Shown piece after piece: positions 315 to 29,610 of a stretch of DNA of 64,000 nt (the first letter of the stretch is position 1; every line of letters begins with the position of its first letter). The DNA lies in contig CM000432.1 of the NCBI GenBank assembly GCA_000165345.1, positions 416,001-480,000 of the forward strand, written 5' to 3'. The notes under the pieces were generated by a model that had not been told where the DNA came from, ran no database searches, and saw only the letters and a list, made by a program, of their open reading frames with translations. Both the position numbers and the translations under genes were made by a program.

Positions 315-2177
315 ATGAATATTTTAATTAATGATAATATTCACGAAATTAGGAATATTTATGAACCTGAGAATGAAAATGAGTTCATTAATAAGAACTA
401 TAGCATTATTGGTATTAATAAAAGAAGAAAAACAGCATGTGAGAGGGAAGCCATTTTTAATAGATTAATATTAAATAACCCAAGTATAATTAGCGTTGAT
501 AAGGCATTACTGCCTGGAACTTGCGTATATTGCAATATTTGCCNAGTAAGGATTATATTAAATCCAGCATATTATTTGAATAATTGGAGAACGCATATGA
601 ATGGAAAACTGCATAAAGCATTATCAAAAGCAGTTGGTAGTCCACAGTTCTTGGACGAAGTAGACTTTTGTTTAGAAAAAGAGGAAGATTCGTACTTTGA
701 TTCTGTAAATGTATTGGGTTATGACAATAATAATATTCAGTACATAAATAGCGATCACAGCAATCAAAATNATAACATTAATATAACTAACTGTATGGAA
801 AATTATGATTTAATGATAAAGAATCCAAGAATATTATCATATATTAGTGATTCAGCTAAAAACAATAATGAAATTATTATTGACAGCATTGAGGATAATA
901 TTACACAATATGGAACAAATCAATTTGACAATAAAGTTATGGAGATATTAGAGGAAGAAAATGATAACAAAAGTAATTTAGAAAGTTTAAATATTAGAGA
1001 AATGAATGATGAAGATATATCCAGAAGTAATATTGATACTATGGGAAGTGAATTGGAAATAAAAAATCATATTCAACAAAATAACATTCAGATTGAAAAA
1101 CAAGAGTATGTAATACATCCATTAATATCAAATTTAGGAATGGAAAAAAATCAAATAGCTCAAGAATTTAGCTTTATTTTGGGAGATGAGTTATATAATA
1201 CTGGATTATATTCACACAATTCTGAAATGGTTGATAATAATACTAATACCAATAATAATAGCAATAGCAAAATATTATACGATGATGAAACTCTTCATGA
1301 TAAAGGGAAGTTATTAAATAGTAATTATTTACAAGTTTATCAAAATGACGCGAGTAAAAATAGTAATATTACCTATAGCGAGAGTGATTTGAACTTGGAT
1401 AAAAATAAGACAACAAATAATGTCGTTAAATATTTTAATACAAATATAATTAATAGCTTTGACAATTTAAATAAAGTGGAAAAATTACAAGATAATTTAT
1501 TAATAGAAGAAATTAATGAAAGTAAATTTCAAAACAATTTAGCCGTTAGTGAAAACAATCGTCAACTCAATAATAATTATTTATCATTAGGGATACCAGT
1601 AATTTCTCCAATAATAAGAACTAACTTTGAACAAATTGGAACATTCTATTGCCCAGGAATTAATAAAGTTAGATATTGGGCAATGTGTTTTATTGGTTCT
1701 GAAAGATCTACGGAACCTGAATTTGATCTAAGTAATTACAGTGATACAAGACGAGTATTCTATAAACAGTCAATAATTACAAAAGTAAGTCCAAATCACG
1801 AGCCAGAACATCAAGGAGTAGTTCATCATCCTAATTGTTTGGAAATTGTACCGAAACCTAATGAACCATGCGAAAGGTGTAGCTTATATATTAATAACAG
1901 ACAATTGGCACGCGTTATTAGTAAAAGAGCTACTCGATTACAAGAGATGTGGGATAGGGTAGTAGCTGGCGAAAGTATTATAAACGGAGGTAAGATCCCA
2001 CAGTCTATTATTTCCGCATATAATCATAGGATAGACCACTGGTCTAGATGTAATGATCCCTTAGAAGCTATCACACGAGCTCTTGCTGGTTGTAGACAAA
2101 GAGACTACACCAACTTCTTTTGGAAAATACGAGAAAATTTACTAAAAAATTCCAGATTAATTAGGAATCAATTATAA
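315..2177 (+). CDS. Hypothetical Asn/Ile-rich protein (620 aa) with a weak ApiAP2-like segment (PGINKVRYWAMCFIG...RRVFYKQ) near the C-terminus
   Basis: Long ATG-initiated ORF with coding-like composition that rises in GC toward the 3' end. It contains two N ambiguity codes (X). No confident family assignment. Confidence 0.7.
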   Translation: MNILINDNIHEIRNIYEPENENEFINKNYSIIGINKRRKTACEREAIFNRLILNNPSIISVDKALLPGTCVYCNICXVRIILNPAYYLNNWRTHMNGKLHKALSKAVGSPQFLDEVDFCLEKEEDSYFDSVNVLGYDNNNIQYINSDHSNQNXNINITNCMENYDLMIKNPRILSYISDSAKNNNEIIIDSIEDNITQYGTNQFDNKVMEILEEENDNKSNLESLNIREMNDEDISRSNIDTMGSELEIKNHIQQNNIQIEKQEYVIHPLISNLGMEKNQIAQEFSFILGDELYNTGLYSHNSEMVDNNTNTNNNSNSKILYDDETLHDKGKLLNSNYLQVYQNDASKNSNITYSESDLNLDKNKTTNNVVKYFNTNIINSFDNLNKVEKLQDNLLIEEINESKFQNNLAVSENNRQLNNNYLSLGIPVISPIIRTNFEQIGTFYCPGINKVRYWAMCFIGSERSTEPEFDLSNYSDTRRVFYKQSIITKVSPNHEPEHQGVVHHPNCLEIVPKPNEPCERCSLYINNRQLARVISKRATRLQEMWDRVVAGESIINGGKIPQSIISAYNHRIDHWSRCNDPLEAITRALAGCRQRDYTNFFWKIRENLLKNSRLIRNQL

Positions 2178-2213
2178 CAAAATAAAAATTTATTAGGTTT
2201 AATACGCACACAG

Positions 2214-2225
2214 TTTCCCGCCTAA
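2214..2225. promoter_or_regulatory. E2F-like box TTTCCCGCCTAA about 270 bp upstream of thioredoxin. A GGGGGG G-box lies at 2342..2347
   Basis: This is an exact TTTCCCGCC core, which is the reverse complement of the TTAGGCGGGA at 38663. Both are intergenic. Confidence 0.4.
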
Positions 2226-2494
2226 GGTTGTATTCATTGTTAACCCCTCAAATTAATAGAAATGTTAAAAATTGTAAATAATATATTTGGGGATAAATTA
2301 ATTAAATATAATTATGCGTAAATTTTGTATCAATTTTTTTTGGGGGGCACGCATATCCAATTTTTGAAGATTCTTATATTTCAAAATTATATAATTCCTT
2401 TTTTTAAAAAATTTTTGGGTGTCTATAGCAATTACTTGCTTTCTTTTTTTTTTTTTTTTAAAGAGTCATAAATATTTCTTAAAAATAAATAAAT

Positions 2495-3113
2495 ATGCCA
2501 GTTCACAAGGTGACTTCAGTAGATGGTAAGTTTTGATGAATTCGATTGAATAAAATTGTTGTGAGTAAACAAAGTGTGTTGGATAGAGGAGATTGAGCTG
2601 AACTGCATATTGGCATTTATTCATGAATGATATTAGAATATATATCTAAAATTGAAGTCATATTTTGCAGCAGGTTATATCTATCTAACTTTGTAACCCA
2701 ATTTTATTTGATTTTAATGTTTGAAGGGCTTGGAAGTCATTCATAAAAAAAAAAAAAAGAAAAAGTCCTAACTTTCCGTTTTAATTTCTTTTTGATATTT
2801 TTTTCCCACAATTTTTGAATTTTTAGAATACAAAGCTTACATCTCAAGACAAGGTCTTGTTGTTGTTGATTACTTTGCCACATGGTGTGGCCCATGTAAT
2901 ATGATTGCTCCAAAATTGGAGGAATTTAGTGAGCAAGTCAAAGATGTCTGTTTTATCAAGGTTGATGTCGATTCTCTCCCTAGTATCGCAGATGCGGAAT
3001 CGGTTAGAGCTATGCCTACATTCAAATTCTTTTTGAATGGTAAGGAAGTAAAGAGTGTGGTTGGCGCAAATTTCGAGATAATTCAACAAGCAGTTTTGGC
3101 TAATAAACCATAA
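2495..3113 (+). CDS. TRX: Thioredoxin. Two exons (2495..2525 and 2827..3113) separated by a 301-nt intron (2526..2826, GTAAGT...TTTTAG)
   Basis: The spliced product is [44 protein letters not shown]...MPTFKFFLNGKEV...ANKP. It carries the canonical WCGPC active site and aligns over its full length to cytosolic thioredoxins. Exon 1 ends in phase 1 (G) and exon 2 supplies AA to give GAA. The ORF track shows only the truncated 2901..3113 piece. Confidence 0.85.
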
Positions 3114-3489
3114 TTACTATTAATTGGTGCTAGCTAATCAAGATCTTTATCTTTCCCTTTTTTAAGTGGACTTTAAAATATTCTTTTTACACTGAATGAT
3201 CGAGTATTTTATTTGTTTTGTATTGCATAATTGTTTTTTTTTTAGATCTTTGTATTTTGTCACTGATTGCTTGTTTGATATATTATAGAATTAACAGTGA
3301 AGTTTGATTCTTTGATTCATCTAAACTATGAATTTAAAATTGCTTGTGAAAGAATGGGATAAAAATGAGCAAAAAAGGTTTAAATTAAAATGAAATCATT
3401 ATTATAATTTGAATAAGAATATTACAATTATTAATAAATATAAAGTTAATTTGAATGAATTTAAATTACTATATAGTTAAATCATTCAA

Positions 3490-3837
3490 CTATTTACATT
3501 CACAAATCAAGCTAATGTTTTCACCTCTCAAAAGTAGCTGTCCTACACTAGTTTCTCTTCTAACTTCTTTTTTTGTATATACTTCAGATGCTTGGTCAAG
3601 CACGATATTCATATATTCATCAAAACCCTATAGACGTATTAAAAGTTATTTAATAGAAATGAATAATAATAAATAATAAATAAATTGATAGCTTACCTGT
3701 ATTACTCCCTCTAAAACTAAATTCTTGTGATCATATAACCAAATTTGTACTCTTTGTTTAGATGTAAACAAGTGGAAAATCTGGTTGATTGGTTGCAACA
3801 TCATTTTTTGAGTCTTTCTCTTTGTTTGAGAATTCAT
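3490..3837 (-). CDS. SmE: Small nuclear ribonucleoprotein E (Sm-E). Two exons (3697..3837 and 3490..3627) with a 69-nt intron (3628..3696, GTAAGC...CTATAG)
   Basis: The spliced product is MNSQTKRKTQKMMLQPINQIFHLFTSKQRVQIWLYDHKNLVLEGVIQ|GFDEYMNIVLDQASEVYTKKEVRRETSVGQLLLRGENISLICECK. This matches the Sm fold of human SNRPE nearly residue for residue (VQPINLIF...RIQVWLYE...[21 protein letters not shown]...LGRIMLKGDNITLL). The ORF track shows only exon 1, as 3646..3837, with a spurious tail. Confidence 0.85.
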
Positions 3838-4335
3838 CTTTGTTAAAATTTCTCAATAGTTTACTTCTTTTACTCTTTGAAATTTAAATATTTAATAAAA
3901 TTATTTTATTTAATATTAATATAAATTTTTATATTTTTAAATATTCCAATTCGTTATCTTTTTAATTTTTTTTTAATTTATAAAATAATTAAATTATATA
4001 ATAAATGACTATTCCCCACAAAGCCCGCCCAAAACACGTCAACACTAAAAATAATAAAATGCAGTAATTGAAAAAATAATTAGATGAATTAACAGCAAAT
4101 AATTTTTAAATAAGAATAATTAAACAACCTTTTAAATGATTTGCCTTAGTTAATATGTTTTTTATATTCACATAGAGCTAAATGCATTAATTATATTTTA
4201 ATTAATAATTGACGATAGATATTTCTCATTACTTTTATATGGCTTTTGATTATTTTCAATTTTTAAGTCCTTATGTTTACTAAGTTCTTTGTTCTAAAAT
4301 AATCAGAATTTTTTATCTTTAAGTGAATTTTATAA

Positions 4336-4935
4336 TTAGTCATCATCTTTTGTACATCTCCTACACATCAGCATTACCATACATATCATCATTGTAACAA
4401 TTACTCCAAATGCAATAGTAGTGAAAGACAAAGCACTGGGAGTTGCTGCTCCTCCCATTGCTCCTGGAATACCTCCTTGTCCGGGTACCATTCCCACTCC
4501 TTGAGCAGCCATTCCACCAACTGCTGCAGGCGCTCCAGGAGTAGCACCTGCTACCGCTCCAGGAGTAGCGCCTGCTGCCGCTCCAGGAGTAGCACCTGGA
4601 ACAGCTCCTGGAGCAGCAGCTATTGCAGCTCCTGGAGAAGCTGCTGCCATTGGATTTGCTGCAGCTCCAGCAGGACTTGCACCCGCAAGAGGATTAGCAA
4701 TGCCAGGAGTAGTCATTGCAGGGTTAGCAACAAGTGGTGAACCTGTTGCACTTTGGATTCCCGTGGAAACTGCAGAACCTGCAAGACCAAGTAAAAAATT
4801 ACCTAAGCCTCCTTCTTTAAGCCTTTCTTTATATCTTACACATTCTGAATTTCTTGTAATTATTAATAAACATAACGTTATTAACAAAAAGACTGAATTA
4901 TAAGGTTTTTTTAAAGACCGATTTAAAAATGGCAT
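4336..4935 (-). CDS. Ala/Gly/Pro/Thr-rich type I membrane protein (199 aa). It has a signal peptide, a low-complexity ectodomain with GATPGA(A/V) repeats, a C-terminal TM segment and a short acidic tail (CRRCTKDDD)
   Basis: The N-terminal hydrophobic segment VFLLITLCLLII and the C-terminal segment TIAFGVIVTMMICMVMLM fit that topology. The repeat region is strongly GC-rich (gcagc/cctgg runs), unlike its surroundings. The opposite-strand ORFs at 4477..4740 and 4700..4903 are artefacts of the repeat. Confidence 0.7.
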   Translation of the reverse strand: MPFLNRSLKKPYNSVFLLITLCLLIITRNSECVRYKERLKEGGLGNFLLGLAGSAVSTGIQSATGSPLVANPAMTTPGIANPLAGASPAGAAANPMAAASPGAAIAAAPGAVPGATPGAAAGATPGAVAGATPGAPAAVGGMAAQGVGMVPGQGGIPGAMGGAATPSALSFTTIAFGVIVTMMICMVMLMCRRCTKDDD

Positions 4936-5503
4936 TATTTTCTGTATTAATTCAGTATTTTCAATTCTCCATTAATAATAATCGATTTCCAAGAGTTAAT
5001 ATTACTGTTTTTACCTTTTTTTTAATATATATTAAAATATATCTATCTATATAAATATAAATATTTATGTATTGTTTAGTTTATTATTTTCAGATTAAAT
5101 TTTTGTTGAAACGATTAAAAATGTCATTAAATTATTTATATGAAAAATAAAGTAAATTATTATTTAATTTTAGTGTGCATATTATCAGCTAATTTAATTA
5201 TTTACTTATTTTTTTTAATACAGGGTGCATATTTATTATTTCCAAATTTAAGAAATACTTTTTAGATAGATTTTTGCTTTTAGGTGTTTTGTAATATATA
5301 TTCATATTCAAACAATTAATTTCAATAATTGAAACTTTATAATATTTTAACCAAGAAATATTGTTAAAAAAATATTAACCACTTAAGCCTAAATCTTATA
5401 ATCACACAATATTAATAATTACATATAGAGTAAAATAGAAAAACCAACATACTGGCGCCAAATTTTAAAATTAGTAAAATTGATAAATTAAGTGTAAATC
5501 TAA

Positions 5504-6514
5504 TTAATTTTTTTTAATAATAGATGTTGATTCTAAAGAATTTCTAGTATGATTAATGTTTCTATTAAAACAAAATGTAGAGGATAATACAAAATAGTTT
5601 CCAATAATTAAAGCAATAATGAAGCCAAATATAAATAGTGCGGATTTGAAGGAAATTTGATCAAGGAATGTATTAATAATTTCGCCAATAATTTGAGCTG
5701 TAAAAATAGACTTTCTTGCAATAATTGTGGGATTCTGTGACATACATCTTTCCCATTCAGTACATTTAGATTCCATTGCTGGCACTCTTTGTTCTGGGTG
5801 GCATTTATTATCAACATAGTGTTTTGAACATATATTCATTTCATCCAATATGTTAGTGATTGAAATTTGAATTTTTGATTCAATATCATTTTTAATTACA
5901 AAGATTATTCCAAATATTATATATAATGTGATAAAAACTATTATTATGTTAAAAATTAGCCGAATAAATTCGTGTGTATTATCAATATTCATCCTTTTTA
6001 AAGAATTAATATATGAATTCTGATTCAGACCATGAGAAAGTTGATTAAATGAATTACAATTAAATTTTTCTGAATTGAAATCGTTATTTATAGCTTTGAT
6101 TTCTCTTTTTTTAAGTAAATTTAAACCTTTACAATAATAATTGTTATTACGTGGTGGTAGGGAATTTGATCTATTTGACAAGGTTTGGTTAATTTTATTG
6201 CAATTATTGCCAATATATTTATAATTAATTGTTAAATTTGGCTTTAGATTGTCGTTGTTTTCTTTATTCAATTTTTGATCAATTGGTTTAAAACTATTTA
6301 TAAAATCAGTTGTTTTTATATGCTCTGAATTCTTTTTGTTATCAAAATTTAGAAAGTTATTATCAACTAAGCCATTACTACTTTCATCAATTATCATTGC
6401 ATTGATCATATCTTCATCAAATTTCTCTTCCTTTAAAATTTTCGGACTTAATTTTAACATTAATTTCTGACTTAACTCCTCAATTTCTAACTCTTCTAAT
6501 ACTGTATTACTCAT
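5504..6514 (-). CDS. Two-TM protein with a four-cysteine lumenal motif (CSKHYVDNKCHPEQRVPAMESKCTEWERCMSQNP) between the helices. It is possibly Brr6/Brl1-like (nuclear envelope)
   Basis: The ORF-track start at 6553 is a TTG. The first ATG gives MSNTVLEELEIEEL... The TM helices are FIRLIFNIIIVFITLYIIFGIIFVI and ALFIFGFIIALIIGNYFVL. The Brr6-like assignment rests on recalled motif spacing only. Confidence 0.55.
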   Translation of the reverse strand: MSNTVLEELEIEELSQKLMLKLSPKILKEEKFDEDMINAMIIDESSNGLVDNNFLNFDNKKNSEHIKTTDFINSFKPIDQKLNKENNDNLKPNLTINYKYIGNNCNKINQTLSNRSNSLPPRNNNYYCKGLNLLKKREIKAINNDFNSEKFNCNSFNQLSHGLNQNSYINSLKRMNIDNTHEFIRLIFNIIIVFITLYIIFGIIFVIKNDIESKIQISITNILDEMNICSKHYVDNKCHPEQRVPAMESKCTEWERCMSQNPTIIARKSIFTAQIIGEIINTFLDQISFKSALFIFGFIIALIIGNYFVLSSTFCFNRNINHTRNSLESTSIIKKN

Positions 6515-6653
6515 ATCAACATTATAATCAATTAAAATAAATATAAACAGCAAATAATTAATATAATTAATGTATTTTTTTTTTAATGCTAAGTTACTTT
6601 GTTTTCTTAATTCTAATAATTGAAAATCATCTTTGATTATTAATATTAAAAGC

Positions 6654-6663
6654 TTGGCGCCAA
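6654..6663. promoter_or_regulatory. Palindromic E2F-like box TTGGCGCCAA about 140 bp upstream of the 5504..6514 gene. TGGCGCCAAA recurs at 5453..5462
   Basis: A GC-rich palindrome in otherwise AT-rich intergenic DNA. It has the same core as boxes at 52231, 58566 and 63153. Confidence 0.4.
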
Positions 6664-6711
6664 TTAAATTTCTATAAAATTTACTTGTATTAATACAAGT
6701 ATTTATTTTTA

Positions 6712-9700
6712 TTAATATTGCTGCTTTCTTTGCTTCATGATATTGTTTCTAAAATTTTCCTGGACATCCTTCAGACTAATTTTCTTTGAGTTCGAATCAA
6801 TAGTCTCTGAGTTTTGCAAATTTGCATTTAAAGCATTGGCTTTAATATCAGAATCTAAATGATTGTTTTGCTTTATATTAATCGCTAAATTTGGAATGAA
6901 TACTGTGGGTCTCTTGATCCCAGTTTTAATGTTATTATTCATTTCATTTTCATTGTTATTATTAGCATTTTCAAGTTTGATCAAATCATCTGAATTAATA
7001 ACAATATTATCTTCTTTCAATACATCATCAATAAATTCAGCCTCAACCAACTCATCTTGTAATGATTTAATACCTTCAATTTCTTTTGAATCAACATTAT
7101 TTCCAGACATATAATATATTGAATATCTTTTTCTTTGACCTCTCATTGTTGATGTACATAGTAATGGAGAATTATTTTGATCAGTTTCATCATCCTTTTC
7201 ATCATTATTTGATAAAATTCCTCCTTCATAATTAGATATAGATGCTCCTGTTTCTTCTAACTCCATTGGTTCATCAAGTTGTGTTATTAATGTATTTGCC
7301 TTTGCCTTCTTCCTATTATTCATCTTTAAGTGGTCGTTCAAATATAATGTATCATTCTCGATATCTTCAGTAAATTCATTCCTGCTCCTCTTGGCCTTAC
7401 GTTCTGAGGAGTTTTTCGATATAATTTCATTCTTGCTCTTTTCTTTTTCCTCCCTTTCGACTCTTTCTCTTTCTTCTCTTTCAATCCTTTCCTTTTCTTT
7501 CCTTTCAATTCTCTCTCTTTCGATCTTCTCTTTTTCTTCTCTTTCAATCCTCTCTCTTTCAATTCTTTCTCTTTCAATTCTCTCTCTTTCGATCCTCTCA
7601 TTTTCCTCTTTTTCAATTCTTTCTCTTTCTTCTCTTTCAATTCTTTCTCTTTCTTCTCTTTCAATCCTTTCCTTTTCTTTCCTTTCAATTCTCTCTCTTT
7701 CGATCTTCTCTTTTTCTTCTCTTTCAATCCTCTCTCTTTCAATTCTTTCTCTTTCAATTCTCTCTCTTTCGATCCTCTCATTTTCCTCTTTTTCAATTCT
7801 TTCTCTTTCTTCTCTTTCAATTCTCTCTCTTTCAATCCTCTCTCTTTCTTCTCTTTCAATCCTTTCCTTTTCTTCTCTTTCAATTCTCTCTCTTTCAATC
7901 CTCTCCTTTTCCTCTCTTTCAATTCTTTCTCTCTCTTCTCTTTCAATTCTCTCTCTTTCAATCCTCTCCTTTTCCTCTCTTTCAATTCTTTCTCTCTCTT
8001 CTCTTTCAATCCTTTCTCTTTCCTCCCTTTCGATTCTTTCTCTTTCTTCTCTCTTGATACATACATATCTTCTCAATGCTTTGCAAATCTGTATACATGC
8101 ATTTTTTCTCTTAATATGTCTATATAATGAAAAAAATTTAATTGAACATCTTATCATTACTAAATAGTTATTACATTTCTTCCTCAACCAATGTTTATAT
8201 AAAGAATTAATGCACTCAATTTTCCAATCCATAGAATTCTCTTGATCACATTTTTGAATAAATTGTTCAACTTTATCCAAAACATTAAATTTAAAAAATA
8301 CTCGAGTTAATCCAAGTTGGTAATCAATTTTATCCTTGTAGCCCATGTACTCCAATAATAAAGAAACAAAAAGTCTTTCATCTCTCAAGAGCAATTTTGC
8401 TTTGAATAATATGTTATTTTTATCATTTAAAGTTAAATCATTCATTGATTCTTGGTCACCAAGTTCAGTATTTATCTCAATAATTTGTTTAAAATAGTTA
8501 TAAATTTGACTGTAAGGAACTCTACAAGGATAACCATAAATCATAATATTAAGAATTTGTAAGATCCCACCAATTTGAAGCTGTTTATATACCTTTAAAC
8601 TATCAAATTTCAAAGAAATCTGCTGATTATTTGGTTTTATACATCTAATAAAATGGCTTTGAGTAGGATATAATTCATTTATTAACATATTCTGAACTTG
8701 TCTAACAAACATGCTTGAAACACTCTTATTCTTATTTGTATTCATTGGTGTTGGCACTTGATTTGTATTTTGATTAATTAAAGTTGTCAATGCATTCATT
8801 TGCAAATTATTTTTCTCAACAAAATTTGATATTCCATTTAATGACAAAATACTCTTTCTAACCAAACTTGTATCGGACATTGGACTATCATCGTTAAATA
8901 TTGCATTATTTTGATTAATATTTTCATCATCTTTGAATTGCACAGATCTTTCATCCTTATTCACTCTATTTAATAAATTATACTTAAATTTATTGATTTC
9001 TTGAATTGTATTTATTCTTGTATGTATTATTTTCTCAATATTTCCTGATAAAAAGTCTGTATTCTTTGAAATAAATTCATTACTTGTGTACTTAACGGGA
9101 CCTGCAAAATGATTTATTGTAAATGTCTTTTCAAGATTAAGTTTTTGAATTTGGATTACTCTTCCAATAGAATCAGACAAATCATTTAACTGAGGCAATA
9201 AATTATTTGTGTTCATTTCATCCTTATTATTGCATATTGATCCTCTATTTATACTCATTCTGATATTTGAATTACTTTGTAATTTATTTAGTGAATGAAC
9301 TTTATTACAAAATGCATGATCCCTATTTCCTTTCATTGGTATCTTTCCTGTTTCATCAAGAATTGATATAATATTATATGGAAGCAGGCTCAACATTGAA
9401 TTATTATACTGAAATTTCTCATAAAATGGATGTGGTGTGCAACTATTACCATCACTTCTTGATTCATTTCCATCTATTTCTGTGTTATTAAGATACTTTG
9501 GATTTACACCACTCATGACTGTACAAACGAATGACTGATGGAATAATAAATCCATTACATTTGCTGATGGAGTTGTCGAAATACTATTATTTATTCCCTC
9601 AGTTTTATATAATACTGTATCTCTATATAGTAATTGTTCCAAAAAGAAGCTATGCAGTCTTTCATTACAATAATTAATCAATAATTGTTCAAAACTATTC

Positions 9701-27624: not shown

Positions 27625-29610
27625 TTAATTTTTCAAAAGAATTATTTTCTTCCAGGTTTTTTTATTAAAATCAATCATTAAATATTGAAATGCTTGATTT
27701 GAACCTCTTGAAAGTAAAATATCACCAATCAATGGATCTAAATAACTAAAATAGCAATTGGAATTAATCTTGGTAAATTTTACAAGAAATGAATGGTTAA
27801 ACCAATCAACGATAATTTCTACCAAATAAACTGATACAACCCATGTAATTACTGAAGAAAAAATAGAATCTGTATAAAGTCTTGCATTTGAGTACATTCT
27901 GATAAATAAAATGCAACCATCATACAAAAGTTGAAACCTTTCAATAGTGTCTGAACATGAAACTGTAAATAAAGAAATTGAATGATAAGTCTTAAAAACG
28001 GTTGATTTAATTTCTGCAAAGTTATTGGTTATTACAATCAGAAACATGGTGTACTCTGATGAATTTAGTGAAATATTTAATGCTAATCCTCTAATCATAT
28101 GAATAGTACAGTGAATTATTAAGTAAATTATTACCAAAAAATACTTTGAAAAAGAATCAATGAATAATTTTGTAAAACTTGGATGACTTTTTTCTTGTTT
28201 AAAACTTCCATCAACAAATCCAATATATGTAAAGAATTTAATAACTGATTCCAAATATGTATCAATTAAATCTCTTCCAAAAGATCTGAATAGTTTTTCA
28301 AATATTTCCAGCATATTAAAAATGAAATATAACTTTAATAATCCTTGCCCTCTGATATAATGGTAAAAAAATGAGATATCAAGCCTGCTGAAAATATAAA
28401 TAGATAACAATAAAACTAAGAATCTTGAGAAGTCAGTTAACTCAACAGCAGTGAATCTAAAATACTTTTTAAGGTTAATACTTAATAATGGCTTTAAATC
28501 TTGTTTATTCTTATTATAGATATGATGACTATTAATTTCATCATAGAATATGTCAGAAGCTGAAATAGATTGCAATTCTGATTCTTCTAAANATNATCTT
28601 TGGNCATTCATTCTATATGAGTGAATATGATTTTTAATTTGTGGGAAAAAATTGTTATTTTTACTAAGAAATCCATCATCCTTACTTTTCATGTTGAATC
28701 TAAATCTCAATTTATTATCGTACTCTGGAATATTTATCAAACTTTTGCTTTTAATTTGTTTATCTTCGAATAAATATCCAACACTAGAATTCTCGATTAA
28801 TTCATTATTGTTTTTATATCCCATATTATTTTGTTCTTTATTAGTATTTTGAATAAGATTCCAAGAATTTGAATCAATAGAATAATCGTTTTCAATATTA
28901 TCTTCTGAATTATTATAATTATCAGCTCTTTGAATTATTGAATCATTCTGGAAATAAGTTGATTTACCTGTAATTAGAAACATAAATATATTAGTAATAT
29001 TCAAAAATATTAATAAAAATAATTTTAGTAATGCTATCATTGAATTNATTGGTAGAAACGTTAAATCATATAGGATTGTATCGAAGCAAAGTAGCATTGA
29101 GAAGTTAAGGAGGTACTCTAATTTCTTTGGTACTTGATAAACTTCATTTAAAAAATTATTAGGAATTCGATCATTAAAACTATCTTCGTCAAATTCAAAG
29201 TAATCAACATTTTTTTTTTCAAGTACATTTTCACTTCTAATTTCAGACCAAATGAATTCCAAAGATGATATTATATTATTCTCCATTCTATTCCCATTTT
29301 GGTTATTGTAATCCTTTAAATCATCAATTTGTTCTTCATTACTACTACTTAAATTACTAACACTATTACTTTCTTCTTCTAAATGATTGACATAATTTTC
29401 TTGATTACTGGATAATTTAATAACTTCATTATTTGTTTTCTCACGGGAATGAGAATTTTCATTTAATAGCATTTCTTTGTATGTTGATACATTATTGTTA
29501 CTATTATGGCCGTTTGTGTACAAATTTAACTTTTCAGAATCCTCCATATTATTAAGGGTTTCATCCTTAACTAACATATTTTGAGTACTTTTGTTCTGTT
29601 TCTTAGACAT
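27625..29610 (-). CDS. Multi-pass membrane protein with an Asn/Ser-rich N-terminus, possibly TAPT1/Emp65 (DUF747) family
   Basis: A C-terminal block, NNFAEIKSTVFKTYHSISLFTVSCSDTIERFQLLYDGCILFIRMYS, resembles the conserved DUF747 core (VFKK...SD..ERF). There are multiple TM helices. The gene contains 4 N ambiguity codes (28593, 28596, 28605, 29047). Confidence 0.55.
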   Translation of the reverse strand: MSKKQNKSTQNMLVKDETLNNMEDSEKLNLYTNGHNSNNNVSTYKEMLLNENSHSREKTNNEVIKLSSNQENYVNHLEEESNSVSNLSSSNEEQIDDLKDYNNQNGNRMENNIISSLEFIWSEIRSENVLEKKNVDYFEFDEDSFNDRIPNNFLNEVYQVPKKLEYLLNFSMLLCFDTILYDLTFLPXNSMIALLKLFLLIFLNITNIFMFLITGKSTYFQNDSIIQRADNYNNSEDNIENDYSIDSNSWNLIQNTNKEQNNMGYKNNNELIENSSVGYLFEDKQIKSKSLINIPEYDNKLRFRFNMKSKDDGFLSKNNNFFPQIKNHIHSYRMNXQRXXLEESELQSISASDIFYDEINSHHIYNKNKQDLKPLLSINLKKYFRFTAVELTDFSRFLVLLLSIYIFSRLDISFFYHYIRGQGLLKLYFIFNMLEIFEKLFRSFGRDLIDTYLESVIKFFTYIGFVDGSFKQEKSHPSFTKLFIDSFSKYFLVIIYLIIHCTIHMIRGLALNISLNSSEYTMFLIVITNNFAEIKSTVFKTYHSISLFTVSCSDTIERFQLLYDGCILFIRMYSNARLYTDSIFSSVITWVVSVYLVEIIVDWFNHSFLVKFTKINSNCYFSYLDPLIGDILLSRGSNQAFQYLMIDFNKKTWKKIILLKN

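Follow-up and report, generated by a model that had tools for sequence, protein, structure and literature searches.

The Sm fold consists of an N-terminal helix and, after it, a five-stranded antiparallel beta-sheet that is strongly bent. Its nucleotide-binding residues are an aromatic residue and an asparagine in loop 3, and an Arg/Lys-Gly pair in loop 5. Human SmE (SNRPE) is known from the PDB chains 3cw1_E and 4wzj_E and from many spliceosome structures. It has 92 residues, as has the protein of Cryptosporidium parvum that is discussed here, and the two share the Sm1 motif GFDEYMN.VLD, the Sm2 motif L.G.NI.L and the helix segment QK.M.QPIN.IF near the N-terminus; the predicted fold of the C. 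parvum protein agrees. They differ in details. In the variable loop that separates Sm1 from Sm2, C. parvum SmE carries two inserted residues, its Sm2 motif contains arginine (LRGEN) where the human one contains lysine (LKGDN), and its tail ends with a Cryptosporidium-specific ...ICECK instead of the human ...LQSVSN.

In C. parvum itself, the crystal structure of LSm5 (3pgg) has been solved. LSm5 is a member of the LSm2-8 and LSm1-7 rings and not of the Sm ring. It resembles C. parvum SmE in having the Sm fold and in coming from the same organism, but it is a separate protein: The identity amounts to 26% in the Foldseek alignment, and by sequence there is no match between the two at E <= 0.001. 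Sm/LSm phylogenies pair LSm5 with SmE as paralogues (PMC2650416).

The window, i.e., the whole stretch of 64,000 nucleotides that was analysed, contains on its minus strand what is almost certainly the C. parvum orthologue of SmE, a protein of 92 aa with the Sm fold, the gene of which has two exons and a single phase-0 intron of 69 nt (see the table). The closest described system is the public record of this very gene. An identical 92-aa protein is available as EAZ51247.1 (C. parvum Iowa II, 'small nuclear ribonucleoprotein, partial') and as QOY42277.1 (CPATCC_001902; C. parvum IOWA-ATCC annotation); both are 100% identical to the product described here, have one intron and differ in nothing, being the same gene. 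UniRef holds the identical protein under the name 'Small nuclear ribonucleoprotein E', and public assemblies annotate an SmE span of 348 nt, equal to that in the table. The original prediction had presented the gene as missing from the ORF track. It is indeed absent from the six-frame ORF list, but public annotation has the identical protein with the identical span. Gene, intron and identity are already known. Since the gene model is publicly annotated, the locus has to be considered ordinary, and the gene is an ordinary housekeeping gene. When the literature was searched for a description of SmE in Cryptosporidium, nothing specific turned up.

Annotated orthologues with 95-99% identity are found in C. 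tyzzeri, C. hominis and C. ubiquitum. On a 1.1-Mb chromosome, assembly GCA_048859185.1 has a 6.3-kb locus that shares 99.89% identity with positions 492..6837 of the window, and the exact C. parvum SmE protein is encoded in this assembly. Across the genus the genes follow in the same order: a Brr6-like protein, a low-complexity protein of 173-229 aa, SmE, and a convergent thioredoxin.

Table. Position (in the window), strand and size of the SmE gene, of its neighbours and of related open reading frames
Feature	Position	Strand	Size	Description
SmE gene	3490..3837	minus	348 nt	two exons, one intron
SmE exon 1	3697..3837	minus	141 nt	ATG at 3837..3835; residues 1-47, MNSQ...LEGVIQ; N-terminal helix, strands beta1-beta2, as far as the beginning of Sm1
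SmE intron	3628..3696	minus	69 nt	phase 0; GTAAGC...TATAG; GC 16%
SmE exon 2	3490..3627	minus	138 nt	includes TAG stop at 3492..3490; residues 48-92, GFDEYMN...LLLRGENISLICECK; remaining Sm1, variable loop L4, Sm2 motif
63-aa ORF	3646..3837	minus	63 aa	exon 1 plus intron read-through, ends at in-frame TAA
40-aa ORF	3490..3612	minus	40 aa	exon 2 from an internal Met onwards
Thioredoxin gene	2495..3113	plus		spliced
Thioredoxin exon 1	2495..2525	plus	31 nt
Thioredoxin intron	2526..2826	plus	301 nt	GTAAGT...TTTTTAG; GC 27%
Thioredoxin exon 2	2827..3113	plus
70-aa ORF	2901..3113		70 aa	thioredoxin fragment
199-aa ORF	4336..4935	minus	199 aa	directly upstream of SmE
661-aa ORF	27625..29610	minus	661 aa

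The exon and intron coordinates, the intron with its terminal sequences and the 92-aa product had all been predicted correctly, as was seen when the sequence was re-read by script. Exon 1 is open from its ATG to its last base and ends with ...GTAATACAG; exon 2 opens with GGTTTTGATGAATATATGAAT... and runs to the TAG stop. Joined, the exons yield 141 + 138 = 279 nt, i.e., 92 codons and the stop, and the complete product reads MNSQTKRKTQKMMLQPINQIFHLFTSKQRVQIWLYDHKNLVLEGVIQGFDEYMNIVLDQASEVYTKKEVRRETSVGQLLLRGENISLICECK. It comprises the Sm1 and Sm2 motifs that had been claimed for it, with the quoted segment LEGVIQGFDEYMNIVLDQASE in its interior. The intron contains TAA and TAG in frame, and an unspliced mRNA would therefore give rise to a truncated product of 63 aa. 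With a GC content of 16% in the intron versus 32% in the exons, the gene fits the published C. parvum averages (PMC4637869), which are 22% for introns and 32% for exons, introns being 99 nt long on average. The sequence TTTTAAT, 12-18 nt upstream of the 3' splice site, is a possible candidate for the branch site.

The assignment to the Sm proteins was checked against Pfam LSM (PF01423), as suggested with the original prediction. The 92-aa product passes with 59.3 bits (E 2.9e-16), the gathering cut-off being 23.4 bits; residues 25-89 cover profile positions 4-65 of 66. The translation of exon 2 alone scores E 1.9e-08. When the product was searched with phmmer against 177,635 PDB sequences, the nine best distinct sequences were SmE without exception (E 2.6e-24 to 7e-09, 88-39 bits). 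Chlamydomonas SmE ranks first (2.6e-24); among the rest are human SmE (1.2e-23) and those of C. elegans, S. pombe, S. cerevisiae, a thermophilic fungus and others. By its E value, the human match is far past chance. The alignment with human SNRPE, which had been claimed to extend over the whole length, runs from residue 7 to 88 of 92 against residues 8-87 of the human protein, with 47.6% identity; its single gap, of two residues, is located away from the exon junction, and there is none at the junction.

The residues that define SmE and the Sm fold are in place. The SmE-specific N-terminal segment QKxMxQPINxIF is conserved in the C. parvum product, and DEYMN (Y52, N54) and LRGEN (R81, G82) are present. 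Invariant in a 10-sequence alignment are G48, F49, D50, E51, Y52, M53, N54 and G82, and these positions can be aligned with human SmE.

A single Pfam domain is common to all Sm/LSm proteins, and LSm5, SmG, LSm8 and archaeal Sm proteins do appear among the PDB matches of the product. That the 92-aa protein is such a paralogue, e.g., LSm5 or SmG, and not SmE is nevertheless very unlikely. The first matches beyond SmE are LSm5 (1.1e-06, 32 bits) and then SmG (about 1e-04, 26 bits), far below the 62-88 bits that SmE matches reach over the full length; the N-terminal segment is that of SmE; and C. parvum has its own LSm5, only 26% identical, as the crystal structure attests. The predicted structure speaks the same language. 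An AlphaFold2 model built from ten homologues has a mean pLDDT of 77.8 and displays a short helix (H17-20) and then five strands, the helix falling short of its length in solved structures and confidence being low at the N-terminus. In Foldseek versus the PDB the model matches Sm proteins with a probability of 1.00 and a target-normalised TM score of 0.7-0.8, and the 27 top matches are all SmE chains. Because the top matches in sequence and structure are exclusively SmE and the LSm5 of 3pgg is distinct, the protein is SmE rather than LSm5; the candidates LSm5 and SmG were rejected on account of the score gaps and the separate LSm5 structure. In sequence and in the model, no other Sm/LSm paralogue appears as near to the product as SmE.

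For the splice junction, all GT..AG pairs were listed whose removal takes out 21 nt or more and leaves an open frame between the ATG (3837) and the TAG (3490). There are 20. Against human SmE the pair 3696|3628 ranks at the top with 90.1 bits and no gap at the junction, and its GTAAG at 3696 is the sole strong donor. The other 19 removals were rejected, since none outscores it.

The orthologous loci of C. hominis, C. ubiquitum, C. felis, C. xiaoi, C. ryanae, C. muris, of a Logan contig and of assembly GCA_039657295.1 (L001) were compared with the window. In all nine Cryptosporidium lineages a single phase-0 intron is found at the same codon boundary, IQ|GFDEYMN. Its length varies: 69 nt in C. 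parvum and C. hominis, 66 in C. ubiquitum, 51 in C. felis, 82 in C. xiaoi, 58 in C. ryanae, 146 in C. muris, 71 in L001 and 87 in the Logan contig. The boundaries are conserved as cag|GTAAG[C/T] and [T/C]AG|gg, the junction in C. parvum being cag|GTAAGC ... TATAG|gg. Four of the nine lengths (58, 71, 82 and 146) are not multiples of three, and exon 2 would therefore be out of frame in these lineages without splicing. In eight of the nine, an unspliced SmE mRNA would end up either truncated or frameshifted.

Base changes are distributed unevenly. Compared with L001, C. parvum shows an identity of 97.1% in the exons and of 76.7% in the intron, and all eight changed codons are synonymous. Between C. 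parvum and C. ubiquitum the figures are 90.0% and 67.1%; here synonymous changes affect 21 codons and non-synonymous ones 5, and third positions account for 23 of the 28 base changes. Such a pattern indicates that purifying selection acts on both exons in the joined frame. The intron is conserved genus-wide in its position and its GTAAG...YAG boundaries, with drifting sequence and length. It is, as far as can be read from the DNA, a U2-type GT-AG spliceosomal intron, the removal of which restores the conserved reading frame.

Of course, the locus could be spliced in a way that differs from the model, with another donor or acceptor, or not at all, as a decayed gene or as two independent small ORFs. 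The C. parvum intron is divisible by three, and the alternative in-frame donors at 3705 and 3717 leave recognisable Sm proteins (85.1 and 79.7 bits, respectively). Yet these donors (GTAATA and GTTTTA) remove conserved residues and score below 3696, stops lie in frame within the C. parvum intron, and a retained intron would shift the frame of exon 2 in four lineages. One codon boundary keeps its GTAAG donor and YAG acceptor in nine lineages, the great majority of exon substitutions are silent in the joined frame, and independent annotation pipelines arrived at the identical gene model. Any such departure from the two-exon model can practically be dismissed. The authors of the IOWA-ATCC annotation state 100% RNA-seq support for its introns, a statement on the whole set and not on this gene (PMC8744675). 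The 3697|3627 junction of the two-exon model may thus be called supported, namely by homology, by comparative data and by this set-wide statement.

A few observations on the compared loci may be added. The DNA of L001 (CM077710.1:172382-178731) is 89% identical to the window and its SmE is identical over 92 aa, with an intron of 71 nt versus the 69 nt of the C. parvum window. The public SmE models of C. ryanae (L007:1501-2187, P0010) and C. meleagridis (P0005) have aberrant 3' ends and comprise 107 and 135 aa, respectively. That of C. ryanae contains a spurious predicted second intron; a model with only the 58-nt intron leads to a normal SmE of 98 aa ending ...GENITLICESKD.

As to function, orthology and established knowledge of Sm proteins suggest the following course. 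C. parvum SmE would join SmF and SmG in the SmE-SmF-SmG sub-complex and would then take its place among the seven members of the Sm ring, a heptamer that would close on the U-rich Sm site of the U1, U2, U4 and U5 snRNAs. SmE itself would contact one nucleotide via DEYMN of loop 3 (Sm1) and RGEN of loop 5 (Sm2). In the 64-kb window, no Rfam family reached its gathering score, so that no linked snRNA was found, and ARAGORN found no tRNA genes in it. The other six Sm proteins appear to lie outside this stretch as well.

Cryptosporidium is very poor in introns; about 11% of its genes have any (PMC4637869). Despite this, the one intron of SmE has been kept across the genus. It may have been kept for a reason, e.g., autoregulation, or it may correspond to an ancient SmE intron position; we see little probability for either. 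Autoregulation would mean that low Sm levels cause inefficient splicing and, in consequence, formation of the truncated 63-aa product. The ancient position is a topic in Veretnik et al. 2009 (PMC2650416).

The absence of SmE from the ORF track has a trivial cause: Six-frame ORF lists cannot display spliced genes. The original description of the track, exon 1 fused to intron, was essentially right and corresponds to the 63-aa ORF, which by itself has no Pfam match. The 40-aa ORF of exon 2 falls below the default listing limit of 60 aa. The value of the case lies chiefly in quality control: Short spliced genes of Cryptosporidium are lost from a six-frame ORF list or garbled in it. The same artefact recurs in public metagenome-type collections in the form of prokaryote-style gene calls. 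P0012 (63 aa) consists of exon 1 with intron read-through and is identical to the 63-aa ORF of the window. P0007 (121 aa; Logan SRR31861040, L008:86-451) reads through an 87-nt intron that is open in frame; it belongs to a Cryptosporidium lineage with SmE exons 83% identical to those of C. parvum.

The thioredoxin gene next to SmE is spliced too. Its spliced product has 105 aa and matches Pfam Thioredoxin with 2.9e-27. The ORF list holds only the 70-aa fragment, and the protein is therefore mis-represented there as well.

On the other side of SmE, the 199-aa ORF encodes an Ala/Gly/Pro-rich sequence with hydrophobic N- and C-terminal segments. It has no Pfam match; it is syntenic across Cryptosporidium, with a length from 173 to 229 aa.

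Finally, six isolated N bases occur in the window, at 544, 771, 28592, 28595, 28604 and 29047. Three of them are clustered within 13 nt (28592-28604), inside the 661-aa ORF.
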